This document shows, piece by piece, positions 2,324 to 19,092 of a DNA stretch of 64,000 nucleotides. A program made the translations under genes and the position numbers. The notes below the pieces were generated by a model that ran no database searches, was not told where the DNA came from, and saw nothing but the letters and a program-made list of their open reading frames with translations. How positions within the stretch are numbered: the stretch's first letter is position 1; every line of letters begins with the position of its first letter. Source of the stretch: an uncultured virus (IMG/VR IMGVR_UViG_3300047319_000243) (Duplodnaviria > Heunggongvirae > Uroviricota > Caudoviricetes); IMG/VR virus record IMGVR_UViG_3300047319_000243. One strand, 5' to 3'.

Positions 2324-2509
2324 ATGGCTAAAAAATTAGTTCGGAATGCGGATCAACTTGCGGATATACTTACATCCCTGATCGATGTCGCCAAGAAACA
2401 GGCGCAGGCCGGTGTGACTAACACGGGCCGTAAGGTCACGCAGAAGGATTTTGAAATCTTGAACCGGGCGCGTCGGGTGAAAAAGACACTCGACGACCCT
2501 CAGAAATAG
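2324..2509 (+). CDS. Hypothetical protein
   Basis: 61-aa ORF with GGGGG RBS, in operon. Confidence 0.6.
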   Translation: MAKKLVRNADQLADILTSLIDVAKKQAQAGVTNTGRKVTQKDFEILNRARRVKKTLDDPQK

Positions 2510-2524
2510 TCTGGAGTCCGAACA

Positions 2525-2821: not shown

Positions 2822-2841
2822 GCGCCACGACGGGGGTCACA

Positions 2842-3030
2842 ATGGCTTGGTACGTTGAATCGACGAAGGCTCCGGGACTCCGGTTCCGCATCGTCAAACT
2901 CGACAAGACCTCCATGCACGCGACGCTGAAAGGCGACACGGGTGTGGAGTTCGAAAAGACGTTGACGCAGGACGTGCTCGACAAGTTCGGGTACAAGGTC
3001 ATCCAGATCAAGGACGCGGTGGCAGCGTAA
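2842..3030 (+). CDS. Hypothetical protein
   Basis: 62-aa ORF with RBS and phage-like codon usage. Confidence 0.7.
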   Translation: MAWYVESTKAPGLRFRIVKLDKTSMHATLKGDTGVEFEKTLTQDVLDKFGYKVIQIKDAVAA

Positions 3031-3054
3031 GCTGCCCCTTTTCGTAGGGTCCAA

Positions 3055-3324
3055 ATGTCAAGCTCTCCTAACTACGTCCGCGATTACAAGCAGGAGAAAA
3101 AAACCTCCGACGCGCGCGGCGAGAAGAAGAAGCGCAACGCGCGGGACCGTGCACGCTACGAGCTTGAGAAGCTGGGCATGGTTCACAAGCACGACGGCAA
3201 AGATGTGGATCACATCAAGCCGTTGAGCAAGGGCGGGGCAGAGACGAAGCGCGATAACCTGCGCGTCGTGAGCGAGCATAAGAACCGCTCATTCCCGCGC
3301 AAGAGTGACGGGAGCATGAAGTGA
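3055..3324 (+). CDS. Small HNH endonuclease-like protein
   Basis: DVDHIKPLSKGG...NLRVVSEHKNR motif. Confidence 0.85.
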   Translation: MSSSPNYVRDYKQEKKTSDARGEKKKRNARDRARYELEKLGMVHKHDGKDVDHIKPLSKGGAETKRDNLRVVSEHKNRSFPRKSDGSMK

Positions 3325-4016
3325 AGCCGTACGCATGGAGCCATAGCGCGCTGTCCTCGTTCGACACCTGCCCGCGCCAGTACGAAGAGATCAAGGTACT
3401 GCGTAACTTTCAGGACACGACGAACGCGGCGGCGCTGTGGGGCGATGAGTTCCACAAGGCGGCCGAGACGTACATCAAGGCGAAGTGTGGGCTTGGCGAA
3501 GCATCGCTGCCGGCCAACATGTTGATGTATGACGAGTACCTTTTGCCGTTCGCCACGCGTCCCGGCAACACGTTGGTAGAGCAGAAGTACGCACTCACGC
3601 AGCAACTTGCACCTTGTTCGTTCTACGACAAGAATGTGTGGTGCCGGGGCATCGTCGACGTGCTGACGATCAACGGCCACGTGGCGCATGTGGATGACCA
3701 CAAGACGGGGAAGAACCGTAAGAAGGACATGCAGCAGCTGATCATCTTCGCGCTGCTGACCTTCTACCATCACCCCGAGGTCGACACGTGCCACACGGCG
3801 TTTCACTGGCTGCAGCATGGGTTCGGTGAGACGGCGAAGGATCGCGAGACGTTCTATCGGCATCAGATTCCGCAGCTGTGGGAATCGTTGCTGCCGAAGC
3901 TGCAGCGGTACAAGGCGGCGTTTCAGAACGGGGTGTTCCCGCCGAAGCCGAGCGGGCTGTGCAGGAAGCACTGCGCGGTGCAGACGTGTGAGTACGTTGG
4001 CAGTGGGCGTCGATGA
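3321..4016 (+). CDS. PD-(D/E)XK exonuclease (Cas4/RecB-like)
   Basis: WSHSAL..F.TCPR, G.EFH, GIVD...DHKTG, C-terminal C..C..C cluster. Confidence 0.85.
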   Translation: MKPYAWSHSALSSFDTCPRQYEEIKVLRNFQDTTNAAALWGDEFHKAAETYIKAKCGLGEASLPANMLMYDEYLLPFATRPGNTLVEQKYALTQQLAPCSFYDKNVWCRGIVDVLTINGHVAHVDDHKTGKNRKKDMQQLIIFALLTFYHHPEVDTCHTAFHWLQHGFGETAKDRETFYRHQIPQLWESLLPKLQRYKAAFQNGVFPPKPSGLCRKHCAVQTCEYVGSGRR

Positions 4017-4300
4017 CGCCTGAAGGAAAAGTAAAGGCGAAGGTGAAGGCCCTCCTGAAGCAGTGGGGGGCTTACTTTCATATGCCAGTACAAAACGGGA
4101 TGGGCGAGCCGACGTTAGATTTCATCGCTTGCCTGAACGGTAGGTTCATTGCGATAGAGACCAAAGCACCGGGCAAGAAGCCGACGAAGCGGCAGGAAGT
4201 CACGATGGCTCAGATGCGCGCCGCTGGCGCGTTCGTGTTCGTCGTGTCCAATGACGCCGAGTTGGAAGTGCTCGGGGCATACCTCGCATTACTATCATGA
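4013..4300 (+). CDS. VRR-NUC domain nuclease (putative Holliday junction resolvase)
   Basis: TPEGKVK...G..LDFIAC..GRFIAIETKAPGKKPT.RQ. Confidence 0.9.
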   Translation: MTPEGKVKAKVKALLKQWGAYFHMPVQNGMGEPTLDFIACLNGRFIAIETKAPGKKPTKRQEVTMAQMRAAGAFVFVVSNDAELEVLGAYLALLS

Positions 4301-5889
4301 TCGTACATACACCATCAAAGAGCCTCTTGCTCAAGCTGAGGCCGAAGAAGCTCGCCGAAGTGATGGCGATCTTCCCGTCGCATTCGAAGCAGATCGATCA
4401 CGAAGGGCACAACCTCGCGGTGCCGCACAACCTCGCGGTGGTGAAGGTGCTGCGCAACATGGGCATCAAGGCCCCGTCGCCGATCCGGTATTACTACGGC
4501 TGGCCACGGCCGGCGCGCTTCACGAAGGTGTTCGATCACCAGTACGCCACCGCGGACTTTTTGACGATGCACCCGCGTTGCTTCGTGCTCAACGAGCAGG
4601 GCACCAGCAAGACGGCATCGGCCATTTGGGCCGCCGACTATCTCATGTCGCTCGGACGCGTGAAGCGTGTCCTGATCGCTGGCAAGTTGTCGACGCTCGA
4701 CCACGTGTGGCGCGATGAAATCTTCGACGTTGCAATGCACCGCAGCGCGCTCGTGCTGCACGCCGATGCTGAGAAGCGCCGCCAGCTGCTCGCGCAGCCC
4801 GTCGACTTCTACATCACTAACCATGATGGCTTGAAAATCCTCGCGGATGACATCAAGAAGCGCAAGGACATCGACCTCATCATCATCGACGAGGCGAGCG
4901 CCTTCCGTAACGCGCAGACCGGGCTGTACGAAGTGCTGAAGGACATCAGCAAGGGCCGCAAGCTGTGGATGCTCACGGGCACGCCATGCCCCAACGCGCC
5001 CACGGATGCGTGGGCACTGGCCCGGCTGGTGGACCCGACGCGCGTGCCGCAGTTCTTCACTCAGTTCAAACGCAGGACGATGCAACAGTTGAGCACGTAC
5101 AAGTGGGTGCCGATGCCGGGCAGCCACGAGACGGCGTTCGAGGCGCTGCAGCCGGCGATTCGGTTTAAGAAATCCGAGTGCCTGTCGCTGCCGCCTGTCA
5201 CGTACCAGACGCGTCAGTGCGATCTGTCGAAGGAACAGAAGGACGCGTATCAGGCGATGAAAAATCATCTGGTGCTGGAGTCCAAGGATCAAAAGATCAC
5301 GGCGGCGAACGCGGCCGACAAGATCAGCAAGCTGCGCCAGATTCTGTGTGGCTCGATCAAGGACACCGAGACCGAGCAGTACGTGGCGATCGACCACGCG
5401 CCGCGCCTCAAGGTGTTGTTGGAAGTGATCGAGGAAGCGAGCGCCAAGGTGCTGATCATCGTGCCGTTCAAGGGCATCGTGCAGGTGCTGCGCGACGAGA
5501 TCATGGACTGGCACCAGAAGCGCGGCGACGGCCGGCGTGTCGAGGTCGTGAACGGCGATGTGGCGAAGGGCAAGCGCGATACGATTTTTCAGGACTTCCG
5601 CGATGACCCATCGCTCAACGAGTTGGTGTGTCACCCGAAGGTCATGGCGCACGGCCTGAACCTGACGCAAGCCGACGTGATGGTGTTCTATGCGCCGATC
5701 TACTCCAACGAGGAATCGCTGCAGGTGATGGACCGGATCAACCGGCCCGGCCAGACGCGCAAGATGACCATCGTCCGCATTCAGGCGAACACGTTGGAGC
5801 GTGACATCTACGCCATGGTGAACGATCGCGCCGTGAACCAAGAGACGATCCTGCAGTTGTACAAGAAGCAGTTAGACCTGTTCATTTGA
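4297..5889 (+). CDS. SNF2-family SF2 helicase
   Basis: NEQGTSKT Walker A, IIDEAS, LTGTP, HGLNL, QVMDRINRPGQ. Confidence 0.92.
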   Translation: MIVHTPSKSLLLKLRPKKLAEVMAIFPSHSKQIDHEGHNLAVPHNLAVVKVLRNMGIKAPSPIRYYYGWPRPARFTKVFDHQYATADFLTMHPRCFVLNEQGTSKTASAIWAADYLMSLGRVKRVLIAGKLSTLDHVWRDEIFDVAMHRSALVLHADAEKRRQLLAQPVDFYITNHDGLKILADDIKKRKDIDLIIIDEASAFRNAQTGLYEVLKDISKGRKLWMLTGTPCPNAPTDAWALARLVDPTRVPQFFTQFKRRTMQQLSTYKWVPMPGSHETAFEALQPAIRFKKSECLSLPPVTYQTRQCDLSKEQKDAYQAMKNHLVLESKDQKITAANAADKISKLRQILCGSIKDTETEQYVAIDHAPRLKVLLEVIEEASAKVLIIVPFKGIVQVLRDEIMDWHQKRGDGRRVEVVNGDVAKGKRDTIFQDFRDDPSLNELVCHPKVMAHGLNLTQADVMVFYAPIYSNEESLQVMDRINRPGQTRKMTIVRIQANTLERDIYAMVNDRAVNQETILQLYKKQLDLFI

Positions 5890-5900
5890 GAGTATTCCCC

Positions 5901-6347
5901 ATGGCGACCACAATGGATGATGTAGCGCTGAAAGCGTTCGTCGCGACGATCCCGGCCATGCCGGTCGAGAAGCGCGTGAAGCTCTTTCTCAAGACGCGCG
6001 CGGCGAAGTCCGAAGCGCAGAAGTCGTTCGACGAACAAGAGGCACAGTTCAAGCAGATCATGGAAGCCTGCCAGAACACGATGCTGGCCGATGCCGACAA
6101 GCAAGGCATCACGGGCTTCAAGACGCCATTCGGCACGACGTACGCCGATGAGACGGTGCGCTACTCGATCGCTGACGGCCACGCGTTCTACACGTTCGTG
6201 CAGGCGCAGAAGGACTTGGATTTTCTTGAGCGGCGCGTGTCGTCCACGCACGTGAAAGAGTATATGGAGGCCAACGGGGGTGCGCTGCCGCCGGGGCTGA
6301 GTGTGTTTCGTGAGCGTGTGATGCGCGTGAGGAAGGCTGGGAAATGA
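5901..6347 (+). CDS. Conserved phage replication-region protein
   Basis: Coiled N-terminus, KTPFGT, LERRVS, LPPG; typical of PolA-phage replication modules. Confidence 0.75.
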   Translation: MATTMDDVALKAFVATIPAMPVEKRVKLFLKTRAAKSEAQKSFDEQEAQFKQIMEACQNTMLADADKQGITGFKTPFGTTYADETVRYSIADGHAFYTFVQAQKDLDFLERRVSSTHVKEYMEANGGALPPGLSVFRERVMRVRKAGK

Positions 6348-6901
6348 CAGAAGCACTTGATGTGATGCTCGATCTGGAGACGCTGGGCACGGAGCCGTTT
6401 GCGCCCGTGCTGTCTATCGGCGCATGCACGTTCTACTTGGGCGAGACGCCGAATGGTGTTGAGCCGATCGCCGACACGTTCTATCAGGCGGTCGACATCG
6501 AGAGTTCGATCACGCTCGGCATGCGCCCGTCCGGTGCCACGCTGAAGTGGTGGGTGAACCAGTCGGCCGATGCGCGCGCGGTGTTCCAAGACCCGGCCGC
6601 ATGCTCGCTGCCCGACGCGCTCGACGCGTTCACGGACTGGCTGAACAGCCGCCCGGTGCAGGTGTGGGGCAACTCCGCGCGCTTCGACTGCGGCCTGCTC
6701 GCGGCAGCGTACAAGGCGTGCAGTAAAGAACTGCCGTGGATGTTCTGGAATGAGCGCTGCTATCGCACGGCGAAGAACCTGCCGGGCGCGAGCAGCGTGG
6801 CTATGCAGCGGATGGGGACGCACCACAACGCGTTGGATGATGCGGTCTCACAGGCGATGCACCTGCGTGGCATCTACAGCGCGCTGGGATTGAAGGCGTA
6901 G
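6344..6901 (+). CDS. DEDDh 3'-5' exo(ribo)nuclease
   Basis: MLDLETLG, WGNSARFD, HNALDDA motifs. Confidence 0.9.
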   Translation: MTEALDVMLDLETLGTEPFAPVLSIGACTFYLGETPNGVEPIADTFYQAVDIESSITLGMRPSGATLKWWVNQSADARAVFQDPAACSLPDALDAFTDWLNSRPVQVWGNSARFDCGLLAAAYKACSKELPWMFWNERCYRTAKNLPGASSVAMQRMGTHHNALDDAVSQAMHLRGIYSALGLKA

Positions 6902-6952
6902 GCTCTACGCCATTTGACATAAACGTATTGATCAATTTTTTAAGGATCACTA

Positions 6953-8197
6953 ATGAGCAACCTCATTCCTTTCAATAGCGGCGCTGGCGTCCCGGCACAC
7001 CTCGACTCGCTGTGGGGCGACGACGCGAATATCGCGCAACGCAACGGCATCAACGCGCTGAAGTTCAAGGGCAAGGTCTGGCGCACCATGATCGACGGCA
7101 GCGAGACCGACCTCATGCAAGACGTGAACGGCGACCAAGTGCCGGCGCAGATCGTCAACATCGTGGTGCTCGACCACAACAAGAACCGCAGCCGCGCTTT
7201 CTACGACGGTGGCTTCGAGGACGGCGCGAACAAGGCCCCGACGTGCGCATCGAGCGACGGCGTGAAGCCCGACGCCAATGTGAAGGAGCCGTGTGCGGCC
7301 ACGTGCGCGACTTGCCCGAACGCCGTGAAGGGTTCGAAGATCAGCGACAACGGCAAGCCGACGACGGCATGCGCGCCGAACAAGCGCGTGGCTGTGGTCC
7401 CGGTCGGTGGCATCGGCAAGCACGTGCCGCTGCTGCTGCGTCTGGCGCAGACTTCGGTGTGGGACAAGGACAACGCCGAGAACGAAGCGCAAGGCTGGTT
7501 CGCATGGGACCAGTACCTCGACTTCCTGCGCGCACGCGGCGCGAAGCATACGGCCGCAGTGGAAACGCGCTGTAAGTTCGACAAGCGCATGGCTTACCCG
7601 AAGCTGCTGTTCTCGGCATCGCGCTGGCTGAACCCCGACGAAGCCGTGGCCGCCAAGGCAATGCTCAACGACTCGGTGGATGACATCGCGAAAATCCTGT
7701 CCGGCTCGGGTCTGAACGACGGCCTCACCGGCACGCCGGGCATCCCGACCGATGGCGTCGCGTCCCTGCCGGCGGCAACGGACACGGTGAAGGCCACGAA
7801 GGTCGCCGCAGCTGAGGCAGCAGTCGACGCGATCGACGCGGTGGCGAAGGCCGAAGCCGCCAAGGCCGAAGCAGAAGCCAAGGCCGAAGCAGAAGCCAAG
7901 GCAGCAGCCGAAGCGGTAGCGGCCGAGAAGGCACGCAAGAAGGCAGCGAAGGACGCCAAGGCCAAGGCGGCAGCAGAAGCGGCGGCGGCAGCGGCGGCGG
8001 CAGCGGCAGCGGCGGCAGCGGCGGCGGCGAGCGCCGAGGACGATGACGACGATGAGGACGACGACGCGCCGGCCCCGTTGGCGGCAGCGCCGGTCGCAGC
8101 TGAGCCGATCGCCCCGCAAGCGGGTGTGGGCACGGAGTCGGCAACGCCGGCTGGCCTGTCTGCCCTGCTCGATGGCTGGGACGACACCGACGACTAA
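6953..8197 (+). CDS. Putative ssDNA-binding/annealing protein with Ala-rich linker and acidic tail
   Basis: C.SSDG..PD...C..CP motif, acidic end (GWDDTDD), position before the primase. Confidence 0.7.
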   Translation: MSNLIPFNSGAGVPAHLDSLWGDDANIAQRNGINALKFKGKVWRTMIDGSETDLMQDVNGDQVPAQIVNIVVLDHNKNRSRAFYDGGFEDGANKAPTCASSDGVKPDANVKEPCAATCATCPNAVKGSKISDNGKPTTACAPNKRVAVVPVGGIGKHVPLLLRLAQTSVWDKDNAENEAQGWFAWDQYLDFLRARGAKHTAAVETRCKFDKRMAYPKLLFSASRWLNPDEAVAAKAMLNDSVDDIAKILSGSGLNDGLTGTPGIPTDGVASLPAATDTVKATKVAAAEAAVDAIDAVAKAEAAKAEAEAKAEAEAKAAAEAVAAEKARKKAAKDAKAKAAAEAAAAAAAAAAAAAAAAASAEDDDDDEDDDAPAPLAAAPVAAEPIAPQAGVGTESATPAGLSALLDGWDDTDD

Positions 8198-8206
8198 GCC
8201 ACGTTC

Positions 8207-8235
8207 GGACAAACGGAGCGCCCCTCCGTTTGTCC
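8207..8235. repeat. 29-bp palindromic element, copy 1
   Basis: GGACAAACGGAG-cgccc-CTCCGTTTGTCC. Confidence 0.95.
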
Positions 8236-8257
8236 GGCTCACCCCATAGGAGAAAGA

Positions 8258-8605
8258 ATGTCCCGCATTATCACCGCCGATCGCCTCCAGCAGATCGCAG
8301 ACGCGCATGCAGCTGACCCCAACGCGCCCGGCCCTATCCTCGGGCAATTGATCATCGATGGCAACGTGCCGGTGGAAGCCGTCGCGCGCATGCTGCGCGT
8401 GTCCGATGTGACGATTTACCGCTGGATGTACGGCACCGCGCGCCCGCGCGATCAGGACAAACTCGCGAAGCTGGAGAAACTTCTCACGATTCTCCGCAAA
8501 GCCAAGCGGGCCAAGGAGTTGCCGCTCGCTGGCACCGTGCCACAGCGTATTAAGCTGGTTGAAAAGCTCATCATCGCCTACCGCCCGCTGCGCAGTCCGT
8601 CATAA
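8258..8605 (+). CDS. XRE/Cro-like HTH DNA-binding protein
   Basis: VEAVARMLRVSDVTIYRWMYG HTH; AGGAG RBS. Confidence 0.8.
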   Translation: MSRIITADRLQQIADAHAADPNAPGPILGQLIIDGNVPVEAVARMLRVSDVTIYRWMYGTARPRDQDKLAKLEKLLTILRKAKRAKELPLAGTVPQRIKLVEKLIIAYRPLRSPS

Positions 8606-8634
8606 AATCTGACGCTCGACAATTCGGGGTCCAA

Positions 8635-11538
8635 ATGAATACGCGTGATTTCCTGCAGCTGCTGACCCCCCGTTCGGGGGCGATCTTTATCGCCACGCCC
8701 AGTGCGCAAGGCGGTTGGGTCAACATCCCTCATCGGTCGCTGGATAAAGCCGTCGATCTCGTCAACCAGTTGACGTTCGAGAACCGGCCCGCGTATTTCT
8801 CGATGGCCGGGTACGACAAGGATAAATATTTCGACGACGCGGCGCAGAAGTGGCGGCGTCGCACGCAGGCCAACGCCCGCGCAATCCGGTCGTTCTTCCT
8901 CGATCTGGACGTGAAGCCGGGCGACCCGCTGTGCTTCGACTCCAAGGATCAGGCGTGCCAAAGCCTCAAGGCGTTTGTGAAGAAGGTCGGCCTGCCCCGG
9001 CCGCTCATCGTCGACTCCGGCGGCGGCATCCACGCGTACTGGCCGCTCGTGCAGGACGTGACCACCGCGGAGTGGAAGCCGATCGCTGAGCAGTTCAAGG
9101 CGATCTGCGTGCACGAGCAGTTCAATGCCGACCGTAGTCTCACCTCCGACGAGGCGCGCGTGCTGCGCGTGCTCGGCAGCTACAACGTCAAGCGCAGCGC
9201 GCCGGTCTCGTTGATGGTCCCGCCCCCGCCCCCGATCGCGTTCGAGGACTTCGCTCAGCGCATCACGGGATACGCGGGCCTCCACGGCGTCGCCACAACC
9301 GCAGGTAGGTCGAAGGTCGGCACCCTCGGTTCCGGCCCGGCTGTGGACGTGTGGGGGGCTGGCGACAACCTCGGCGCGACCAACGACCCGCTGAACTTCG
9401 ACCGCATCGTGTTCCACTGCCCTCAGCTGCAGGCGCAGGCCGGCGCGCGCGGGCGCGACTCCGGTGAACAGCTGTGGCGTGCTGGCCTCGGCATCGTCAA
9501 GTTCTGCGAACAGCAGGCGGCCGCCGCGCGCGTGATCTCCGATGGCCACCCTGACTTTGACGCACAACGCACTGCGCAGAAGATCATCAACTGGAACGCT
9601 GGGCCGACGAAGTGCACGCACTTCCACCAGCTGAATCCTTCCACGTGCGAGTCCTGCCCGCACTGGGGCAAGCTCACGTCGCCCGCGCAGCTGGGCCGCC
9701 AGATCATCGACACCCCTGCCCCGCCCATGCAGATCACGGTGCCGCCCGCGCCGGACGCGATCGACCAGACGCCTGTCACGATCACCCTCACCCGCCCGGA
9801 GTTCCCCACGGGCTACTCGCGGCGCGCCGATGGCGCGGTGGTGCGCGAGCACGAGGATCAGGACGGCAAGCCGACATTCGAGACCATCTGCCCGTACGAC
9901 CTTTACCCGCTCGCGATCCGCAGCCAGAACGGCACGGACACCGAGATCGACGAGCACAGCATGTGGCGTGCGCACCTGCCGCTCAAGCGCGGCGCAGGCA
10001 CGGAGCCGCGCGACTTCGCGGTGCCGCTCGGACTGTTGGCCGACCAGCGTGGATTGTCCAAGCTGTTGTTCAGCAAGGGCGTCGTGCTGTCGGGGGATCA
10101 ACCGAAGTTCACCCAACTCTATATGTCTGCCTACCTGCAAAAGCTGGCCAAGGAAGCCGGGCGCGATCAGCTGTACGAGCGCCTTGGCTGGCATGATGGT
10201 CACGAGACGTTCGTGCTCGGCGACCGTGTGATCCACCGCGACGGCACCAGCACGCCGCACACCGCGAGCGACGCGATCCGCGCGACCACCAAGAACGGCC
10301 TCAAGACGGCGGGCACGCTCGCCGGCTGGCAGCAGGCCATGCAGTTCTTCAACCGGCCCGGCTACGAGGGGCATCGCTTCTTCCTCTATGCCTCGTTCGG
10401 CTCGCCGCTTTTCCACATGAACGACACCGGCAACAAGGGCGCGATGCTCGCGGCCGGCGGCGCATCCGGGCGCGGCAAGACGACTTGCCTGAAAGCCTGC
10501 TCGTCCGTGTGGGGTTCGCCCGAGGCGCTGGTGGTCAACGGCAACCGCGAAGGCGCAACCACCAACGCGCTGTACAGCACGCTCGGCACGGTGCATTCCC
10601 TGCCCTTCCTGCTCGACGACATCACCGAGCGCGACAGTGACGAACTGCGCCGCCTTGCACTGAATATCAGCCAAGGCGAAGGCAAGCGCCGCATGCAGGC
10701 CGATGGCACGATGGTGGGCCGTCTGGACACGTGGGCGAACCTCACGCTGACCTCCACGAACGCCGACACGCTTACGTCGCTCATGTCCACCGGCAAGGAC
10801 GTGGACCCCCACCTCATGCGGGTGGTGAGCGTGGAATTCGCGCTCGTCGATGCGCGCGCCGACGCGAAGATCGAAGCCGACCGTTTCATCCGCGCCATGG
10901 GGCAGAATTATGGCCACGCGGGCGCGCTCTTTATGCGCTATATTGCTCAGCACTACGAACAAGTGCGCAAGCTCTACATTCGCAACGTCGAGAAGGTCGA
11001 CCGCCTGTTGGCTTCGCGCAACGCCTCGGCCGAGCGCTACTGGTCCGCAGTCGTCGCCGCCGCGTACACCGCCGCGCAGATCGCCAGCAAGGCCGGCATT
11101 CTCGACTTCCCGTTCGAGGACGACCTGAAGTGGATGATCGCGCTGCTCACGCGCCAACGCGAATCGATTCGTGAGGCTGGCTCGACGCCGGTCGAACTGC
11201 TGACCCAGTTCCTCGACGGCCACGTGCGCAACACGCTGGCGCTGTCGCCCAAGGGCGCAACGAATCTGGACAACATCGTGATCAAGCCGTTCGACGAGTT
11301 GATGATCCGGCACGAACTGGACACCGACACGATCTACGTCTCGCGCACGGCGGTCATGGCGTACTGCGCGGAGCACCGCACGAGCTTCCGCGTGTTCGAG
11401 GCGAATCTGGAGCGCGACGGCGTGCTGGCCAAGCGCAATGCACAAAAGGTTCTCGGTGCCGACACCGTGTATTCGAAAGGGCAAACGCGTTGCTGGATGA
11501 TCAGCGGCGCGACCCTGCGTTCAACGACTGGAATTTGA
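8635..11538 (+). CDS. Primase-helicase (primase N-terminus, DUF927 domain, P-loop helicase)
   Basis: FFLDLD, SGGGIHAYW primase motifs; LGWHDG; GASGRGKT Walker A; LLDD Walker B. Confidence 0.9.
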   Translation: MNTRDFLQLLTPRSGAIFIATPSAQGGWVNIPHRSLDKAVDLVNQLTFENRPAYFSMAGYDKDKYFDDAAQKWRRRTQANARAIRSFFLDLDVKPGDPLCFDSKDQACQSLKAFVKKVGLPRPLIVDSGGGIHAYWPLVQDVTTAEWKPIAEQFKAICVHEQFNADRSLTSDEARVLRVLGSYNVKRSAPVSLMVPPPPPIAFEDFAQRITGYAGLHGVATTAGRSKVGTLGSGPAVDVWGAGDNLGATNDPLNFDRIVFHCPQLQAQAGARGRDSGEQLWRAGLGIVKFCEQQAAAARVISDGHPDFDAQRTAQKIINWNAGPTKCTHFHQLNPSTCESCPHWGKLTSPAQLGRQIIDTPAPPMQITVPPAPDAIDQTPVTITLTRPEFPTGYSRRADGAVVREHEDQDGKPTFETICPYDLYPLAIRSQNGTDTEIDEHSMWRAHLPLKRGAGTEPRDFAVPLGLLADQRGLSKLLFSKGVVLSGDQPKFTQLYMSAYLQKLAKEAGRDQLYERLGWHDGHETFVLGDRVIHRDGTSTPHTASDAIRATTKNGLKTAGTLAGWQQAMQFFNRPGYEGHRFFLYASFGSPLFHMNDTGNKGAMLAAGGASGRGKTTCLKACSSVWGSPEALVVNGNREGATTNALYSTLGTVHSLPFLLDDITERDSDELRRLALNISQGEGKRRMQADGTMVGRLDTWANLTLTSTNADTLTSLMSTGKDVDPHLMRVVSVEFALVDARADAKIEADRFIRAMGQNYGHAGALFMRYIAQHYEQVRKLYIRNVEKVDRLLASRNASAERYWSAVVAAAYTAAQIASKAGILDFPFEDDLKWMIALLTRQRESIREAGSTPVELLTQFLDGHVRNTLALSPKGATNLDNIVIKPFDELMIRHELDTDTIYVSRTAVMAYCAEHRTSFRVFEANLERDGVLAKRNAQKVLGADTVYSKGQTRCWMISGATLRSTTGI

Positions 11539-11539
11539 C

Positions 11540-11812
11540 ATGGACATTAACGCCACCCTCGCCGAGCGCGGCGCGCGCTACGGTGACTTCGCAACCCACG
11601 CGGCGATCTGCCAGCGGATCAAGGAGTCCATGTGGAGGAACCCCGGCTGGTCGCGGCTCGCGCCCGACCAAGCGCAGGCGCTTGAGACCATCGCCGACAA
11701 GATCGCGCGCATGCTCAACGGCGACCCCAACTATCACGACAATTGGCACGACATCGTTGGCTACGCCAAGCTCGTCGCCGATCGGCTCGCCACCCGCGCC
11801 GACCCGTCATAA
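11540..11812 (+). CDS. DUF6378-like phage protein
   Basis: LAERGARYGDF...KIARMLNGDP...DNWHDIVGYA. Confidence 0.8.
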   Translation: MDINATLAERGARYGDFATHAAICQRIKESMWRNPGWSRLAPDQAQALETIADKIARMLNGDPNYHDNWHDIVGYAKLVADRLATRADPS

Positions 11813-11860
11813 CGAAATCCTCCTGAGTTGACGACAGCGGCGCTCAACGCGGCGGTGAAC

Positions 11861-11952
11861 CCCCGGCAACCGCGCCCAAAGCCTTGCTGCATATCGTGAG
11901 CGCCCTACCGGCTTCGGCCGGTAGTGTTATGCGATAAGCGAGGCGGCCGGGG
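11861..11952 (+). ncRNA. Candidate structured RNA: nested long hairpin capped by cUUCGg
   Basis: CCCCGGC/GCCGGGG, GCCTTGCT/AGCGAGGC, GCATA/TATGC and CTACCGGC-TTCG-GCCGGTAG pair in nested order. Confidence 0.4.
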
Positions 11953-11973
11953 AACCTTCCTTACATTCCTCCT

Positions 11974-12000
11974 GCTGTACGTACGTACAGCCGTACGTAC
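11974..12000. promoter_or_regulatory. GTAC-repeat palindrome upstream of parA (candidate centromere/operator)
   Basis: Perfect 18-bp palindrome GCTGTACGTACGTACAGC followed by CGTACGTAC. Confidence 0.45.
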
Positions 12001-12086
12001 AAGTTGCGTGCGGTCCCACACGTAAGACACCTTGTAACTATTCCCTACTGTAACTATGCTGGAGGCTCCTACTTGGAGACTACAAC

Positions 12087-12740
12087 ATGGTTATAACGAT
12101 TGCCAACCCGAAGGGTGGCGTGGGGAAAAGCGTGCTGGCTACGAACATCGCCGCAATAGCCGCCGCCCGTGGGCATAGCGTGACGTTCTTCGATACGGAC
12201 GTTCAGCGGAGTGGCGGCAAGTGGTGCGATCAGCGCAGAAACCTCGGCATCCGACCGCGCATCGACCTGCTCATCCCGAAAGACGACCTGTTCGACGAGT
12301 TGCAGGCGGCATCGCAGAGCAGCGATGTGGTCGTCGTGGACGTCAAGGGTACGGGCGGCCCTGCGCTGACTATTGCGGCTGGTTTGGCGGACCTCGTGGT
12401 GGTCCCGGTGATTCCCGGACAGTTCGAGGTATGGGCGCTCGACGACGCGGCCGACCTGATAGAGAGCCTGCGTGCCACGGGCGCGGGCTTCCGGTGCCGT
12501 GCCGTGATCAACAACGCGCCGACCACGCGTAACAGCCGCGACGTGCGCACCGTTACGGCCGCGCTGAAGGCGTACAAGCATTTCTTCGAGCCGTGCGACA
12601 CGGTGATCTTCGGGCGGCAGGTATTCAAGGACGCGTTGAGCGTCGGCCTGTCGGTGATCGAAATGGATGGCGGCGCACGCGACGTGAAGGCCACCGAGAA
12701 CATCAATACGTTTTTCAACGAGGCAATCAGCAATGGCTAA
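12087..12740 (+). CDS. parA: ParA partition ATPase (short, type Ib-like)
   Basis: Deviant Walker A KGGVGKS, DTDVQRS, VVVD, ADLVVVP. Confidence 0.93.
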   Translation: MVITIANPKGGVGKSVLATNIAAIAAARGHSVTFFDTDVQRSGGKWCDQRRNLGIRPRIDLLIPKDDLFDELQAASQSSDVVVVDVKGTGGPALTIAAGLADLVVVPVIPGQFEVWALDDAADLIESLRATGAGFRCRAVINNAPTTRNSRDVRTVTAALKAYKHFFEPCDTVIFGRQVFKDALSVGLSVIEMDGGARDVKATENINTFFNEAISNG

Positions 12741-13119
12741 GACACCCACACCCGGCATCCAACTCGGCGCGCGCGCCGCGCAACCGCCCGTCGACCGAGA
12801 CAAGCTGCTGGCCGCCGCACACAACGCCGAGCAGCCCAGTGTGGTGCCCGCGCCGCAACCCGTTCGACTGACAACCCCGCCGCCGGCCGAGCGCGCCGCG
12901 GAGCCGAAGGGGCGGACGATCGTATCGGTCGACGACTTGAGGGGCTTCGTGAAGAAGCGCGAGCCGCGCGTACCCATGACGATCCGCGTGCCGGTCAGCC
13001 TGTTCGACGATCTCCAGATGATCCAAAAGTTCGGGGGAAAGACGATGACCGACGTGCTGGTGGAGTCCGCCGCGCCTGTCGTTGCCGAACTCATGAAACG
13101 GATTGGGCAGAAAACATGA
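12733..13119 (+). CDS. Putative centromere-binding partner of ParA (C-terminal ribbon-helix-helix-like)
   Basis: Overlaps the parA stop; disordered N-terminus; PMTIRVPVSLFDDLQ...TMTDVL RHH-like pattern. Confidence 0.7.
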   Translation: MAKTPTPGIQLGARAAQPPVDRDKLLAAAHNAEQPSVVPAPQPVRLTTPPPAERAAEPKGRTIVSVDDLRGFVKKREPRVPMTIRVPVSLFDDLQMIQKFGGKTMTDVLVESAAPVVAELMKRIGQKT

Positions 13120-13709
13120 CCGAAGCCGAGACCACCGAGAAGGATGAGCTAGACGCCGACCTGCGCTGGCTCCACGTGTTCCACTCCATGATCGCCACGG
13201 GGGCACTGGCGAAAATGACGCCGTACGGGCTGGCGGTGTACATCGTGGTCAAGTACCACATCAACATCGCGGATGACCCCGACAAGTTCCCGACGATCGA
13301 TGTGATCGCCAAGGGCGCAGGTATGAGCGAGCGGAAGGTGAAAGACATGCTCAATCACCTAGAGTCGATGGGGTATCTCAAGCGAGCGCGGACGCAGGGC
13401 GGCAAACCGAACACGTACCAGCTGACGGAGCACGTACCGATAATGAAAAACGGGGAACCATACGCCAAGGCCGATTTCTCCCACCTGCCGTTCGAATGGC
13501 AAAAGCCGGTGGATGAACTGAAGGCGCTGCTTAAAAGCGGCGACCTCGACGGCAAACACATCCATCTGCACATTACGTTCAACCAGTTCAACGACCAGTC
13601 CACGCAGAACAACGCCGAAATGATCTTCAACGCGTTGAAAGACCCACAGCTGGCCGAGGCGATGCGCAAGCTGATCGAGAACCGCTCAGCGAAAGTCGCG
13701 GGCCTGTGA
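13116..13709 (+). CDS. Winged-HTH plasmid-type replication initiator (putative)
   Basis: LAVYIVVK...FPTIDVIAKGAGMSERKV...LESMGYL...NTY (HTH_36-like); followed directly by origin-like DNA. Confidence 0.7.
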   Translation: MTEAETTEKDELDADLRWLHVFHSMIATGALAKMTPYGLAVYIVVKYHINIADDPDKFPTIDVIAKGAGMSERKVKDMLNHLESMGYLKRARTQGGKPNTYQLTEHVPIMKNGEPYAKADFSHLPFEWQKPVDELKALLKSGDLDGKHIHLHITFNQFNDQSTQNNAEMIFNALKDPQLAEAMRKLIENRSAKVAGL

Positions 13710-13880
13710 ATAACTTTATCCACAGTCTATTCGTATGAGTGCACAAAATGCCCCTACCCCTATTCTTCATAGGGCATATTGTGCACCCTGCGGAGGGGGG
13801 TAAGGTGCGTTTTGTGCACTTACGAAGCCCCCTCTATATATAGGTTTACACTCTTTTTATACTTACAAGCTTTAAAGGGA
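13705..13880. other. Putative plasmid replication origin
   Basis: Inverted DnaA boxes TGTGAATAA (13705-13713) and TTATCCACA (13716-13724); three GTGCACAAWAYGC repeats (one forward, two reverse, about 13739-13820); AT-rich tract about 13833-13880. Confidence 0.7.
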
Positions 13881-13925
13881 AAATCGGTTGTAGAATTCCT
13901 TCCGACCAAAACAGACCGATCGGTA

Positions 13926-14159
13926 ATGATTCTCTACGGGCAGGGCTATCGTCTGCGATTCATCGATAGGATGCTGCACCACTATGGCTGGATCAGGCGC
14001 ATGGTGGTCATGGATTACTTCGGCCTGTCGCAGCCGCAGGCCAGCGTCGATCTGCAGGCGTACATCAAGCTCGCACCCCACAACGTCGTGTACAACAAGA
14101 CGACGAAGCAGTACGAGTCCACGCCCGAGTTCGAACGCATCTTCAGCGATCTGCCATGA
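13926..14159 (+). CDS. Stand-alone CapW/BrxR-like N-terminal winged-HTH protein (no WYL domain)
   Basis: RLRFID..L..YG.I.R...MDYFGLSQPQASVDLQAY...APHNVVYNKTTKQY....F pattern; start moved to ATG 13926. Confidence 0.75.
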   Translation: MILYGQGYRLRFIDRMLHHYGWIRRMVVMDYFGLSQPQASVDLQAYIKLAPHNVVYNKTTKQYESTPEFERIFSDLP

Positions 14160-14386
14160 TCTGGCCATTCTGGAAGCTGTGCACGTTAATCGTCGTCGGC
14201 GAAACCCTCGCGATCGGGGTGAACGTCTGGACGCTGTGCGACCACTGGAATGATCCATGGTGGTCGTTCGTGCCGAGGGCGATCAACCTCGCCTTGCTCT
14301 GCGGTGCGGCTACGATGGCTGGCTTGATGCTCGGGCGCGCTTACCGGATGGACAGGGAGCACAAGCTACCGAAGAAGAACCAATGA
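14156..14386 (+). CDS. Small membrane protein, two hydrophobic segments
   Basis: ATGA coupling with the upstream gene; hydrophobic stretches. Confidence 0.65.
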   Translation: MIWPFWKLCTLIVVGETLAIGVNVWTLCDHWNDPWWSFVPRAINLALLCGAATMAGLMLGRAYRMDREHKLPKKNQ

Positions 14387-15018
14387 AGAAGCACTATCCG
14401 GTGACGCCCGGTGGCACGATCGTCACGTGGCTGGCCAGCGACACGGCCGATGAGGCATGGGCGAAGCTGTTGGCGGATGCGAGCCACATGCCCTACAAGA
14501 CGAAGGCTGAATTCAAGCTGCGCGGCTACAGCGTGAAGCAGATGGACGCCGCACTCGCCACGGACAAGCCGCCGATGAACTACAAGTTTTCGGATGAACT
14601 ACAAGTTTTCGAACAGCCGATGAGCGCGCTACTAATCGGCCCCCACGAGCGCAAGCAGATCGCGCAGCTGGTCGCGGCGGCGCAAGAGAAACCGGTGAAC
14701 ATGGTCGGCATCACGGAGCGGCTGAAGCTGCCCAAACTGAAGGCCGCGCACATGACGCAGATGACGGCGCAGACAATCGACATCCCCGCCGGCTTCATGG
14801 TGACGTTCAGTTTTGAGACTGGCCACCCGTGCGGGCTATGCCGGCACCTGAGTATCAGCCGCAGCAACAACCGGCTCCCGCATCCGCAGGCAGCATTCAT
14901 GATCGCCCAAGAGTTCGGCTTTTGGGGCGATGACCTCACCTCGCTCGATGGCGTATGGGTCGAGAACTTGAAGGGCCACGGCGATGCGGTCAACCTCGTG
15001 CAGCGCGTGGCCCACTGA
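14383..15018 (+). CDS. Hypothetical protein
   Basis: ATGA-coupled start (MKKHYP); C-terminal RHLSIS...RLP motif. Confidence 0.7.
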   Translation: MKKHYPVTPGGTIVTWLASDTADEAWAKLLADASHMPYKTKAEFKLRGYSVKQMDAALATDKPPMNYKFSDELQVFEQPMSALLIGPHERKQIAQLVAAAQEKPVNMVGITERLKLPKLKAAHMTQMTAQTIDIPAGFMVTFSFETGHPCGLCRHLSISRSNNRLPHPQAAFMIAQEFGFWGDDLTSLDGVWVENLKGHGDAVNLVQRVAH

Positions 15019-15019
15019 C

Positions 15020-15442
15020 TTACTTCGTGAGACCCTTTTTCTTTTCCCAGCTGCGCGACAACGTGTAGCCGCAGTACGCCGTGCCGAAGGTGCCCCACAT
15101 GGCGTCAGGGATCGCAGCAAGCCACGCCTTCATGCCGTTGGCGATCGCGAGGCCGGCGGCCGGCGAGACAGCCGAGCAGATGCCCATGGGCACCGCGCAG
15201 AGGATCAGGATGTACATGACGTACATGAACGACGGCCGGGCGCGTGAAGTCCACGGGTCCGACGACTGAGCCTCGGCGAGCATCACGCTCATGTTCTGCT
15301 TCAACTCAGCGAGCGCGGCATCGGCCTGCGCCTTCATGAGCGTGGCCTCGGCCGTGGCCTTCGCCTGCGGGTCCGGCCAAATCTTGTTCATCCCATCGTC
15401 GAGCAGCTTGGCCACGCCCGAGATCGCGTCGTCGATGATCAC
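15020..15442 (-). CDS. Holin-like protein (GTA 3TM-holin family)
   Basis: AEAQS.DPWTSRARP..MY, TM segments, RSWEK; adjacent to the endolysin. Confidence 0.8.
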   Translation of the reverse strand: MIIDDAISGVAKLLDDGMNKIWPDPQAKATAEATLMKAQADAALAELKQNMSVMLAEAQSSDPWTSRARPSFMYVMYILILCAVPMGICSAVSPAAGLAIANGMKAWLAAIPDAMWGTFGTAYCGYTLSRSWEKKKGLTK

Positions 15443-15951
15443 GACAGCCTCCCACCAGCAGCGATAAACACGTTGGTCAATGCCTGCATCGTGGCTTGAC
15501 GCTGGCCGTAGTTATTGCCCGGCAGCGAGGCCCAAATGTTCGAGCAGCGCGCGACGGCGTTGCCGAGGTTGCCCGCGATGATGTCGGGGATCGCGCCGCG
15601 TTCCTTGATCAGCTGCAGGCACCAGCGATCTTGCGCGCCCGGCCCGAAGTCGGGGAGGTGCAGCAGATCGCGGTAGTGCGCCCAGTCCTTCAGCATGAAC
15701 TGATACCTGCCGCTGGCGTTCGACGTGAGGCCCTTGCTGTTGACCACGATCGACGGACGGCCGCCCGCGAACGGGTGCTGCGCGTAGTCGTCGAAACGGT
15801 GCTTGCCGTCGACGCCGGAGACGATCACATCGTAGCCGTTGTTCTTCGTGATGGGACTCGACGAAGTGCCCTCAGCTGCAGCACTCGCCAACATGTCCAT
15901 GAACGCGCAAATGTTCTGACCACCCAAGGCGGTCGCCGACATAACAGGCAT
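15439..15951 (-). CDS. Endolysin, lambda-R-like lytic transglycosylase
   Basis: EGT...GYDVIV...ASGRYQF...DFGPGAQD...WASLPG.NYGQ. Confidence 0.92.
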   Translation of the reverse strand: MPVMSATALGGQNICAFMDMLASAAAEGTSSSPITKNNGYDVIVSGVDGKHRFDDYAQHPFAGGRPSIVVNSKGLTSNASGRYQFMLKDWAHYRDLLHLPDFGPGAQDRWCLQLIKERGAIPDIIAGNLGNAVARCSNIWASLPGNNYGQRQATMQALTNVFIAAGGRLS

Positions 15952-15952
15952 G

Positions 15953-16192
15953 TCAACCCTCGTTCTTCTCGCCGCGCTTGCGCGTGGCCTGATTCCATAC
16001 CAGAAATGTGATCTGCAGCGTCGTATAGACGACCGTCAGCACGATGGCCAGATGGCCCCAATCGATCACCCCGAGCTTCATAGTGGCTGTCACGAATACC
16101 GGTGGTGTCGCTTTCACTGCGCTGGCCACGGCATCGCTGGTCATGAGCGCACCGATCATGCGACCTCTCTTTTCGTTAGGATTCCACATCAT
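15953..16192 (-). CDS. Putative holin
   Basis: Small, TM segment and basic C-terminus; directly upstream of the endolysin. Confidence 0.6.
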   Translation of the reverse strand: MMWNPNEKRGRMIGALMTSDAVASAVKATPPVFVTATMKLGVIDWGHLAIVLTVVYTTLQITFLVWNQATRKRGEKNEG

Positions 16193-16206
16193 TTCTTATG
16201 TCCTGA

Positions 16207-19092
16207 TTATGGCACGACGAGCGTAGTTTCTTCTGAAACTACCGCGAACGCAGAGTCGTCTCGTGACAACACTACGACCTGTTGGAGACCGGAGACCGCG
16301 AGCGCTTCGCTCACGGATGTGCTTGCAAACGCAGAGGGGCCGCCATGCAGAGCGGCGTGGGACCGGAGCAGCCCGGCGCGAGCGCGAGCGCCGACGCCAG
16401 ACAAGGGGAGTGCGAGAGACGCCTGCAGCTGGCCAGCGCGAACGCCGGCCACGAGGCCAAGGAGACCGAAGCCCGAAATCGAATGGACTTTGCCGGTGGC
16501 CGCCACGCGCGTGATGCCGCGAGCCACCGTGGGCTGAACAACGCCTGCGACGGCCTGCGCGTTGACGCCCGTGAGCGAAGTCGTCGTTTCGGTGCCGACG
16601 ACGCCCGGTGCCGCGCCGCTTGCGTCGACGCCCGTGATGTCCTGCCGGTAAACCGAGCCGGTGACGAGCGTGCCGGGGACGCAACTAATCGTCTTGCCGT
16701 GAACCGCCAGCGAGCGCTTCGCGCCGACCGAGCCGGCAGCCGCCGTGGCCGCGTTGCCGTCCAGCTGGATGACCTTGTTGTGCGTCAGGATCACGCTGCC
16801 GGCGCGGCCCGAGGCGTGAACGCGCGCCGTATCCACCGAGCGGTTTACCGATACGGGGGCGACACGGCCCGCAGCCTGCACGCCCGGCGCGGCGACGGTG
16901 CGCCCGGTCGAGTCGATGCCACCGGCCTGAGTTCCCGCTTGGTTGCCTGTAGGCGAGACGGTTAGTTGCGAAAGAGTGTTTCCTACGCGCGCGGTGCCAC
17001 CCACGCCCGCCAGCTGCGTATTTCGAGTGCTGATTGCAGCGCCTACGCGGCCCGTAGCAGCCGCTGCCGAGAGGGCGGTGGTGGATTGGTATGCCGGCGA
17101 GCCGACGCGGCCCGTGGCGACCGTTCCTGTGAGCGCGACGTTCTTCGAAACCTGCGTCACACCGACCGAGCCGACCCTCGCGGTGCCCTTGACGCCCGTG
17201 AGCGCCTTCGTGACCACCGCCGCAGGGGTGCCAACACGGCCGACACCCTTCGCGCCACCGACGCGCACCGTCGCGCTGCCGCTCGGCACACCGCCGATCA
17301 GGACGGCGATTTCCGTGCTGGGGCAGTTGGCCGTGGAGAGGCTGGTGTACGAGGCGACCGCGCTCGTGATGTTCGTCTGGAACCCGACCTGATACGAGCC
17401 GTTGGACTGCGTGAAGTCCGCGCCGGCATCGTTGAACGCGCCGAGCGAGAACGTGTTCGGGTTGTTCGTGAACCACGCAGCATGCAGCGCTTCGATCGAT
17501 GAGCCAGTCATCGTCGGCGTCATGGCCGGCAGCGGGTGGTTCGTGGTCTGCGGATAGGTCAGCGTCTCGTGGCCGGCCGCGTTGTCGATCTGCAGGTTGA
17601 TGCTGCCGACTGCGCGGTACAGCGCGACGTGCGCGGCCGTGACCGTCAGCGAGGCGAACGTGAAGGTCGGGTCAGGATCGCCGTTCGCGTAAATCTTTGC
17701 GTAGATGTTGCCGAGCGTGCCCGACTGCACCAGCGAGTAGCCGGAGGGCAGCCCGCTCGGCGTGCCACCGAGCAACGACACGAGCACCATGTCGCCGGGG
17801 TACGGGTAAATCTTCGAGAGCGCGCCCGTGATGGACAGTACACCCTGCGTCGGCGCGTTGATGTCCCCCTCGTTGACCACGGCCGAGGCGTTACCGGCCT
17901 GCGCGACCGCTGGCGTGCCCTGCGTGAGCGCGACGCCACCCGCGACCTTGAGCACCACTTGGAAACCGTGGTGCCAGTTCGGCGTCGTGTTGTCCTCGCC
18001 CGCCGCCGTGATCAGTTCGGCGTTGCCGGTGTTCGCGTTGCCCGTGAGCGTCTTATCGCCGATCCACGTCGACGGGCCGACACCCGCATCGTAGACGCGC
18101 TGCGTGAAGCCCGAGGGGACCGTCCACGCGCCCGCGTTTTGGCCGGCGGGGTAAGCCGTCGTCGAGAACATCGCCACGCATCGACCGCTGCCGTAGTACG
18201 GCATGACGGCGGGCGCGCGCAGCGGCCACTTGACGTTAGAAATATCGTACGCCGAGACCCCATCGCTGTAGATGTGGCCTTCGCTCCACCCGTCGATCGG
18301 AGTCAGCTGGTCGACGTTGTAATACGCCGCGCTGGCCGCGTCGATGCGCGCCGAATCGCTCGATGCGATCGCGATCGTCGTCGGGTCGCCAGACTGGAAC
18401 GTGCGGTAGAACAGCGCGTAGCCGATGCGCGCGGAGAGCGTCGTCCACCCGCTCGGGGGCGTGACCGTCCCGCTCGCGCTGTTCGTCGTGGCGAGCACCA
18501 GCACCACATCGCCGGGCGCGACACCCGCAGGCAGCGGCAGGGACACCGACGTGCCATTGTTGCGCGACCACGTTGACGCGCGGTAGATGACCCCCGAGAG
18601 GGCCGCCGCGGTGCCGACCTTACCTGTCGCCTTGTTGCCAGATAGCGCGAGCGTCGCCGACTTGCTCACGCCCACGCTGCCGCGTACGCCGGTCGCCTTG
18701 TTGCCAGTCAGCGCGCGGGTCACGCTGCTGTTCGTGACGCCCGCCGTGCCGACGCGACCCGTCGCCTTGTTGCCGCTGAGTGCGACCGTAGTCGAGCCAC
18801 TGCCCGTCGCGGTTGCCGTGCCGACGCTGCCGGTCGCCTTATTGCCTGTCAGCGCGCGCGTGACCGAGCCACTGGCAACGGTTGCCGTGCCGACTCTGCC
18901 CGTCGCCTTATTGCCGCTGAGCGCGATGACCCCCGGCGTGGCCGATGCCGGCGCGTAGCCGATCGGCTCGCCGTCCGAACCCCAGCCGAGATCGACAGTG
19001 GTGACACCGGATGCGGGCGCTTGGAGGTCGAACGGCGCGCCGTCGTCACCGAACCCAAGCGCGCGCAGGTCAGACGCTTGCGGCAGACTCAT
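16207..19092 (-). CDS. Tail fibre/receptor-binding protein with ALxGxxATGxVG repeats
   Basis: 961 aa, Gly/Thr/Ala-rich, repeated fibre motif, last gene of the structural operon. Confidence 0.75.
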   Translation of the reverse strand: MSLPQASDLRALGFGDDGAPFDLQAPASGVTTVDLGWGSDGEPIGYAPASATPGVIALSGNKATGRVGTATVASGSVTRALTGNKATGSVGTATATGSGSTTVALSGNKATGRVGTAGVTNSSVTRALTGNKATGVRGSVGVSKSATLALSGNKATGKVGTAAALSGVIYRASTWSRNNGTSVSLPLPAGVAPGDVVLVLATTNSASGTVTPPSGWTTLSARIGYALFYRTFQSGDPTTIAIASSDSARIDAASAAYYNVDQLTPIDGWSEGHIYSDGVSAYDISNVKWPLRAPAVMPYYGSGRCVAMFSTTAYPAGQNAGAWTVPSGFTQRVYDAGVGPSTWIGDKTLTGNANTGNAELITAAGEDNTTPNWHHGFQVVLKVAGGVALTQGTPAVAQAGNASAVVNEGDINAPTQGVLSITGALSKIYPYPGDMVLVSLLGGTPSGLPSGYSLVQSGTLGNIYAKIYANGDPDPTFTFASLTVTAAHVALYRAVGSINLQIDNAAGHETLTYPQTTNHPLPAMTPTMTGSSIEALHAAWFTNNPNTFSLGAFNDAGADFTQSNGSYQVGFQTNITSAVASYTSLSTANCPSTEIAVLIGGVPSGSATVRVGGAKGVGRVGTPAAVVTKALTGVKGTARVGSVGVTQVSKNVALTGTVATGRVGSPAYQSTTALSAAAATGRVGAAISTRNTQLAGVGGTARVGNTLSQLTVSPTGNQAGTQAGGIDSTGRTVAAPGVQAAGRVAPVSVNRSVDTARVHASGRAGSVILTHNKVIQLDGNAATAAAGSVGAKRSLAVHGKTISCVPGTLVTGSVYRQDITGVDASGAAPGVVGTETTTSLTGVNAQAVAGVVQPTVARGITRVAATGKVHSISGFGLLGLVAGVRAGQLQASLALPLSGVGARARAGLLRSHAALHGGPSAFASTSVSEALAVSGLQQVVVLSRDDSAFAVVSEETTLVVP

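Follow-up and report, generated by a model that had tools for sequence, protein, structure and literature searches.

The stretch of DNA analysed here, 64,000 nucleotides from an uncultured virus (hereafter the window), was found to carry a compact replication and partition cassette, and it is likely to represent a low-copy circular plasmid prophage that combines stable plasmid lysogeny with a separate PolA-based replisome for lytic growth. We infer, as the best reading of the whole, that the window holds almost all of a temperate podophage genome and that its host is related to Burkholderia. The copying-and-partition cassette sits exactly where relatives carry a different cassette or an integrase, and this short-tailed soil virus is therefore probably maintained as a plasmid in the bacteria that it infects. 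An initial annotation of the window had proposed a phage-plasmid with two replication systems, which was supported by the presence of a par and Rep cassette in a sister genome and of TrfA, RepL or integrase genes in the same slot of further relatives.

The sister, G002, is a complete circular genome of 63,289 bp with terminal repeats, in which most core proteins were 80–96% identical to those of the window. Its collinear alignment to the window takes in 52,249 of 64,000 bases, and by this collinearity the window covers approximately 99% of a phage of ~65 kb, with ~0.9 kb falling outside. In the sister, the counterpart of this missing ~0.9 kb holds small ORFs only, which speaks against an integrase just outside the window, the finding that the initial annotation had named as contrary to its reading. 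Within the window the annotation had reported no integrase or protelomerase, and none was found by Pfam among 119 ORFs scanned (62 + 57), drawn from the 220 ORFs of at least 90 aa and a few shorter ones.

The lytic replication block (413–11538, plus strand; Pfam and PHROG) comprises PolA (413–2290), a PD-(D/E)XK nuclease, an endonuclease, an SNF2 helicase, an exonuclease and a DUF927 primase-helicase (8635–11538), and it was also kept in relatives without any cassette. To call this set a full lytic replisome is slightly generous, as no SSB was identified in it. The lysis, tail and head genes (15020–46622, minus strand; Pfam, PHROG and NCBIfam) include a holin, an endolysin, an adaptor, a portal-like gene, TerL and an N4-gp56-type capsid gene (39787–40824) that scored over the TIGR04387 cut-off. 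No RNA polymerase was matched in the window by Pfam or PHROG, and the capsid was the only N4-like (Schitoviridae) trait. The nearest cultured phages were at most 45% identical in capsid, TerL or PolA, and no P1, N15, SSU5 or AB type was present among the listed matches to these three proteins.

Several further features of the genome were recorded. The region 48000–50300, between the terminase and the early genes, is long, mostly non-coding and of lower GC content, with a perfect 28-nt direct repeat (50123 and 50233), and is likely a packaging or genome-end region. A pair of genes for a MoxR-like AAA ATPase and a DUF2201 vWA/metallopeptidase (60139–62818) is kept in most relatives. For an ORF of 42 aa (52796–52924), adjoining the resolvase region, the match to the HI1420 addiction antidote (PF21716) was confined to the antidote's N-terminal half, and no toxin partner was recognised. 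Twelve copies of a ~30-nt palindrome of the GGACAAACGGAG-N5-CTCCGTTTGTCC type were located at 8207, within 49300–57250 (10 copies) and at 60069, mostly directly 5′ of early-gene ribosome-binding sites; the sister has 11 copies, and the pattern was present in 0/14 other records. These palindromes are possibly operators, hairpin promoters or gene-cassette recombination sites, and may offer a lead to the missing repressor, for which no candidate was found in the window by Pfam or PHROG, nor among the clade-restricted genes listed.

The cassette is built around parA, a small partner gene and a winged-helix gene, which overlap by 8 and 4 nt and form one operon (12087–13709), confirming the coordinates and the coupling annotated initially. 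The product of parA (12087–12740, plus strand) is a 217-aa ParA of the short Walker type (type Ib, ParF-like), with the Walker A motif at its N-terminus and no N-terminal HTH, a type Ib trait. It matched Pfam CbiA/MipZ/AAA_31 and PHROG 164 (E 1e-33), and its best solved relative was TP228 ParF (E 1.8e-9); the match to NCBIfam ParA_partition (NF041546) had an E-value of 9e-36, yet stayed under the profile cut-off.

The partner (12733–13119, plus strand; 128 aa) has a Pro/Ala-rich N-terminal half and a conserved C-terminal half, predicted by a single-sequence model to form an extended segment and two helices. Homologues come after parA in the relatives G008, G009 and L199, and in the Atlas the protein scored 0.94 to a 'stability/partitioning determinant', with weak RHH/CopG rows. 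It showed no detectable similarity to ParG, and is probably a ParG-like centromere binder. Of the RHH-like partner initially described, the coupled partner gene stood, whereas the fold had no database support: no RHH match was obtained in Pfam, PDB or Foldseek and the single-sequence model matched nothing, so that the RHH fold is a lead from the Atlas rows and the compatible secondary structure. The ParF-like ParA and its conserved, coupled partner constitute a partition system with a putative centromere, for which the candidate is a promoter/centromere (parC-like) region at 11953–12086 (plus strand) with short TAC/GTA repeats and two copies of TGTAACTA. Similar short degenerate repeats were seen by eye 5′ of parA in G002, G008 and G009 and on the plasmids pRBH2-3 and pA29BJ2. 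No sigma-70 promoter consensus or terminator was found at the cassette.

The motif TGTAACTA occurs seven times in the window against 0.14 expected, always between genes (12033, 12049, 48143, 49625, 51019, 51128 and 55576), and four times in the sister. A role as a shared operator was unsupported: both copies before parA are missing from the sister's cassette, which has none, and the contexts differ.

The third gene (13116–13709, plus strand) encodes a putative replication initiator (Rep) of 197 aa, predicted from homologues, Pfam and a structural model to combine a RepA_N/DnaD-type winged helix with a family-specific C-terminal part. HTH_36 and DnaD_N matched below the Pfam cut-off, PHROG 'replication initiation' families matched weakly (E 1e-8 to 5e-6), and no curated Rep profile in Pfam or NCBIfam passed its cut-off. 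For the model (pLDDT 85.6), the top four VIA-align rows were staphylococcal RepA-NTD, DnaD, DnaB and DnaD, at Z 7.7–7.2, values that fall short of the tool's threshold of 8 and differ by no more than 1 from those of unrelated winged helices. Foldseek returned generic regulators and kinases in its first rows and a RepA initiator fourth, yet the latter was best by query TM-score. The modelled fold appears nearest to the RepA_N/DnaD initiators. A full HMMER search gave 293 representatives of the Rep family at E≤0.001, from which an alignment of 95 members was made (the query, one relative at 75% and 93 of the 150 top-ranking representatives); it was too divergent for pattern scans. HTH_36 was present in 93/95 aligned members and DnaD_N in 36/95 at E≤0.001. 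RepA_N (PF06970) matched neither the query nor was it among 25 of the 33 families listed for the 95 members, and the RepA_C profile matched nothing anywhere, controls included.

Directly behind the Rep stop codon, an origin-like arrangement was observed. Two DnaA boxes stand back to back (13705–13713 on the minus strand and 13716–13724 on the plus strand), and the second, TTATCCACA at 13716, is the sole strict match in 64 kb to what we take to be the DnaA box consensus. Fourteen bases past this box the first of three imperfect 15-bp palindromes of the form GTGCA-N5-TGCAC begins (13739, 13772 and 13805, spanning 13739–13819 with a 33-bp period), which are presumed Rep sites. They are followed by a presumed AT-rich unwinding element (13826–13895) that includes the lowest-GC 60-mer of the window (13836, 28% GC). 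The triple-palindrome score at this position was the highest among 266 window tiles, and it was reached in 0/1500 base shuffles, with the palindrome spacing fixed after the fact.

To assess conservation, 14 loci were compared, namely the window, 11 Burkholderiaceae loci and two plasmid loci, with one broken copy (L169) dropped. Three matched palindromes scored at least 26/30 in 12/14 loci, the best triple had a 32–33 bp period in 14/14 (range searched 28–37), and a DnaA-like box lay 14–16 nt ahead of the first palindrome in 12/14; several of these loci are close kin, so that the independent cases are fewer than 14. The palindrome sequence differs between Rep subfamilies, the chromosomal-island homologues having GTGTC-type origins, while the layout stays, a pattern that would fit an initiator paired with its own target sites. 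The origin-like DNA noted initially is substantiated by the DnaA boxes, the three palindromes and the lowest-GC 60-mer, and the Rep-like assignment of the winged-helix gene fits the PHROG matches, the nearest modelled fold and the conserved origin layout.

Among 398 Burkholderiaceae genomes 22 matched Rep, 12 of them strongly; these 12 had integrative-element-like contexts, one with TraJ, and parA was found within ~1.5 kb in 0/12. The islands (L160–L171) carry Rep with a like origin, many with a small excisionase-like ORF upstream (by eye), and are candidates for mobilisable elements that can replicate once excised. Rep was found in 2/72,556 plasmids and 1/50,697 phage records, a word-index search returned only two homologues, and IMG/VR scans with Rep gave one and two loci. 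A class-wide sample of 400 genomes gave no match at 1e-20, a search with no positive control and therefore uninformative. No replication or stability experiment on the family was found in the literature searched. An alternative casts the winged-helix gene as a transcription regulator, or as a passenger acquired from an integrative mobilisable element, with a cassette that does not replicate the phage. While most homologues with context do sit in chromosomal islands without parA, and generic regulators and kinases head the Foldseek rows, the DnaA box, three phased palindromes and AT tract recur behind the gene across the family, established Rep families fill the same position in sister phages, and none of the three frames is broken in either of two assemblies, so we regard this alternative as very improbable.

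The position of the cassette was examined by blastn against the sister. Similarity ends at 11952 and restarts at 14382, with flanks of 86% and 91% nucleotide identity, delimiting an exchangeable lifestyle cassette (11953–14381) between the DUF6378/primase and lysis genes. The sister's slot holds a different parA (27%), a small partner, a DnaA box and an unrelated Rep matching plasmid proteins annotated RepL. A capsid query of IMG/VR returned 135 related stretches, of which 80 were kept and 15 records were taken whole. Among the relatives, the slot holds TrfA with six iterons in G008, RepL in G009 and a tyrosine integrase in G007 and G019; L199 has flanks 97–99% identical to G009 on both sides, but a TrfA-like Rep in the slot. 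Likewise, a prophage on chromosome 1 of Burkholderia anthina LMG 22950 (capsid 85%) ends at the slot with an integrase and is flanked by a 17-bp repeat. ParA was found in 4/20 records and an integrase in 2/22, and the two were together in none. As the slot between primase and lysis genes holds par and Rep kits or an integrase in these relatives, it is best described as an exchangeable lysogeny cassette. Two H-NS-like genes adjoin trfA in the G008 cassette (L106:4712-5662). A 77-aa ORF (13926–14159, plus strand) is common to G008, G009 and G019 (tblastn 49–52%) and had no Pfam, NCBIfam or PADLOC match.

A FastTree tree was built on the capsid, TerL, primase and helicase of 18 genomes. A single clade of eight (support 0.93) contained all four par and Rep phages, all three genomes with an integrase and one provirus close to the B. 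anthina prophage. Within it, the TrfA-bearing G008 grouped with the integrase-bearing G007 and G019 (0.95), while the deep branching order had a support of 0.38. Judged by sequence comparison, the slot has been swapped within this one subclade among an integrase and several unrelated par and Rep cassettes. The 10 genomes outside the clade had ParA in 0/10 and an integrase in 0/9 (all but Rollin being searched for the latter), which suggests that the lineage also thrives without such a cassette. Direct terminal repeats were present in G002 and G009, although in assemblies these can also come from lytic concatemers. Among isolate genomes, none of the relatives turned up as a free replicon; the capsid query yielded one chromosomal prophage and one MAG contig, and 1/94 genomes of the genus concerned.

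These patterns also bear on whether the cassette serves stable lysogeny at all. It could instead provide host-DnaA-dependent early replication together with ParA positioning, or transient carriage (pseudolysogeny), in a lytic or carrier-state phage that lacks stable immunity-based lysogeny. That no repressor was found in the window and that cultured relatives such as Rollin lack the slot genes would fit such a phage, and one report, in its accessible part, makes the case that many phages with par genes lie nearer to virulent ones (10.1101/2025.11.07.687105). However, the cassette alternates with an integrase at one position in one clade, the integrase-type relative is a chromosomal prophage, and an aid to early replication would not be expected to exclude an integrase. 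The carrier-state explanation is consequently considered unlikely, and stable maintenance as a plasmid prophage is preferred.

A small serine resolvase of 191 aa (53594–54169, plus strand; Pfam Resolvase and HTH_7) was also identified, with a possible function in multimer resolution. Among 18 genomes it was limited to the window and the sister. The initial annotation had listed a resolvase alongside the operon, and its presence was verified; as a core cassette part it was rejected, because it is missing from the par and Rep phages G008 and G009 and is therefore not required. Together with the Rep homologues in integrative-element-like loci, this recombinase could suggest that the phage integrates by an unrecognised route, through the resolvase or host XerCD, and that Rep only briefly maintains excised circles, as proposed for integrative elements. 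Set against this are the size and type of the enzyme, a 191-aa resolvase rather than a large serine integrase, its absence from G008 and G009, the unbroken course of the window through the slot where integrated relatives open, and the collinearity of its ends with the circular sister. There is accordingly little to recommend integration of this kind, which we rate as a very slight chance, over persistence as a plasmid.

The integrity of the cassette was assessed in further data. The region was detected in nine rhizosphere metagenome runs, five with at least half of its words and one possibly the source of the window, and four of the nine were compared in detail. No well-supported joint in these four runs removed the cassette. 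In a second assembly the cassette was 99.9% identical (3 mismatches in 2,429 nt) with all three frames intact, and a single contig from another study covered 9877–17000 with 30 differences. An assembly chimera was rejected, as the cassette is intact in both. The right edge of the cassette is polymorphic: a minority contig in run X1 skips 221 bases (14160–14380) and loses a membrane-like ORF of 76 aa.

Taken as a plasmid prophage, the window would be expected to function as follows. The operon would be transcribed from the region 5′ of parA, and the three palindromes would be bound by Rep, whose dimers probably line up on one helix face given the 33-bp period. Rep and host DnaA on the adjacent boxes may then melt the AT-rich tract, allowing the host replisome to copy the prophage. 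The partner would bind the repeats 5′ of parA and recruit the ParF-like ATPase for segregation, and would probably also repress the par–Rep operon. On induction, the phage PolA, SNF2 helicase and DUF927 primase-helicase would perform lytic replication.

The order of parA, small ORF and HTH gene recurs on two circular plasmid records, Polaromonas pA29BJ2 and Acinetobacter pRBH2-3, both untyped. Their Rep group, which includes that of phage vB_IME_Ab2712, was 29–31% identical to the window Rep. DnaA boxes and three palindromes lie behind the Rep gene of pA29BJ2 in a somewhat different order, and pRBH2-3 is without a consensus DnaA box and has weaker palindromes (24/30 only). Neither plasmid matched Rep3_N, TrfA or RepL, no other annotated Rep was present in their gene tables, which are incomplete, and no characterisation of either replicon was found in the literature searched. 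The record of pRBH2-3 (L004/L006, NZ_CP110465.1) is a 75-kb circle with an N4-gp56 capsid, DNA polymerase, RNA polymerase, recombinase and a 10.9-kb ORF. On account of this capsid, these polymerases and this ORF on a circle of that size, it looks like a candidate N4-like plasmid prophage. A 74.6-kb phage record (OK149216.1) has Rep in common with pRBH2-3. Other circular 'plasmids' with related phage modules were observed in Massilia (87 kb; L001/L002, NZ_CP024609.1; capsid 53%, ParAB, integrases), Endozoicomonas (54 kb; L003, NZ_CP103299.1; capsid 43%) and E. coli (60.5 kb; L185, CP061838.1; DUF927 primase, toxin–antitoxin pair).

A broader proposal can be made, towards which we lean with modest confidence. 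The 197-aa Rep would found a new proteobacterial RepA_N/DnaD-like initiator family whose origins follow one fixed scheme (DnaA box, 14 nt, three 15-bp palindromes at 32–33 bp, AT tract). The module would travel between plasmids, integrative mobilisable elements and two phage groups unrelated to each other, making both the PolA podophage and the N4-like Acinetobacter element plasmid prophages. In the podophage clade it would be one among several interchangeable replicons that alternate with an integrase between near-identical genomes. These phages form a natural series of close relatives that differ mainly in prophage upkeep (integrase, three replicon kinds, none), so that a change from integrated to plasmid lysogeny or back, and the replacement of Rep to evade incompatibility, become directly testable in Betaproteobacteria. 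For plasmids to which typing tools assign no Rep (pA29BJ2, pRBH2-3), the family also provides a candidate initiator and origin. It points to plasmid life as an option for an N4-like phage, and its minireplicon of 2 kb might serve as a vector part.

Compared with known systems, the partition genes resemble the type Ib TP228 ParFGH in the short ParA with ParF as best PDB match, the small downstream partner and the short upstream repeats, but differ in that the partner is without detectable similarity to ParG and the centromere is a presumed one. The closest N-terminal winged helix to that of the Rep model was staphylococcal RepA (PDB 4PTA/4PT7; Z 7.7, rmsd 3.3, 97 aligned); unlike RepA_N/DnaD-type initiators, the window Rep has 11% identity, a different C-terminal part, proteobacterial hosts and an origin 3′ of the gene with DnaA boxes. 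The window shares the parA–small ORF–HTH triad with pA29BJ2 and pRBH2-3/vB_IME_Ab2712, and with pRBH2-3 also a polymerase, a recombinase and the N4-gp56 capsid, whereas pRBH2-3 encodes an RNA polymerase and the 10.9-kb ORF and pA29BJ2, a plasmid of the ordinary kind, has no phage genes. In the accessible text of a survey of N4-like viruses, integrase-based lysogeny is discussed and the word plasmid is absent (PMC10654107).

The literature searched (subscription journals lie outside its coverage) contained no account of the lineage, of the three unrelated Rep types trading with an integrase in one slot, or of the initiator family and its origin. The expectation of a little-described group therefore holds for the lineage but not for the two-system lifestyle, the logic of which is already known from cluster A mycobacteriophages, where parABS replaces the integrase, from the alternative replicases of P1, and from crAssphage with RepL. 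Like P1, N15, the SSU5 group and the AB phage-plasmids, the window has Rep, partition and virion genes, but its virion module and size differ from theirs. In P1 subgroup 1, a single position is taken by one or the other of two replicases (PMC7969092); in the main text of that source, as far as accessible, the term 'DNA polymerase' is absent and integrase alternation is not described, while its supplement covers 780 elements and may include relatives. The accessible main text on tyPPing gives 10 types with many singletons, and the terms 'podo' and 'Burkholderia' are absent from it (PMC12977533). The crAssphage Carjivirus communis has been proposed, in the part of the source available, as a phage-plasmid with RepL genes and two origins; the window differs in order and host, and exchange of a par cassette is not described there (PMC10983915).

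The cluster A mycobacteriophages, which also carry a Pol I gene of their own, resemble the window's clade in that an integrase alternates with a partition cassette. According to the accessible text of the study concerned, parABS replaces the integration cassette in about 20% of 621 temperate phages, and some cluster A parABS phages carry RepA, which is necessary and sufficient for low-copy extrachromosomal replication (PMC7157519). In contrast to the window, those phages have actinobacterial hosts and unrelated virion genes, whereas the slot described here holds at least three unrelated Rep families (HTH_36, RepL and TrfA types), each with its own origin.
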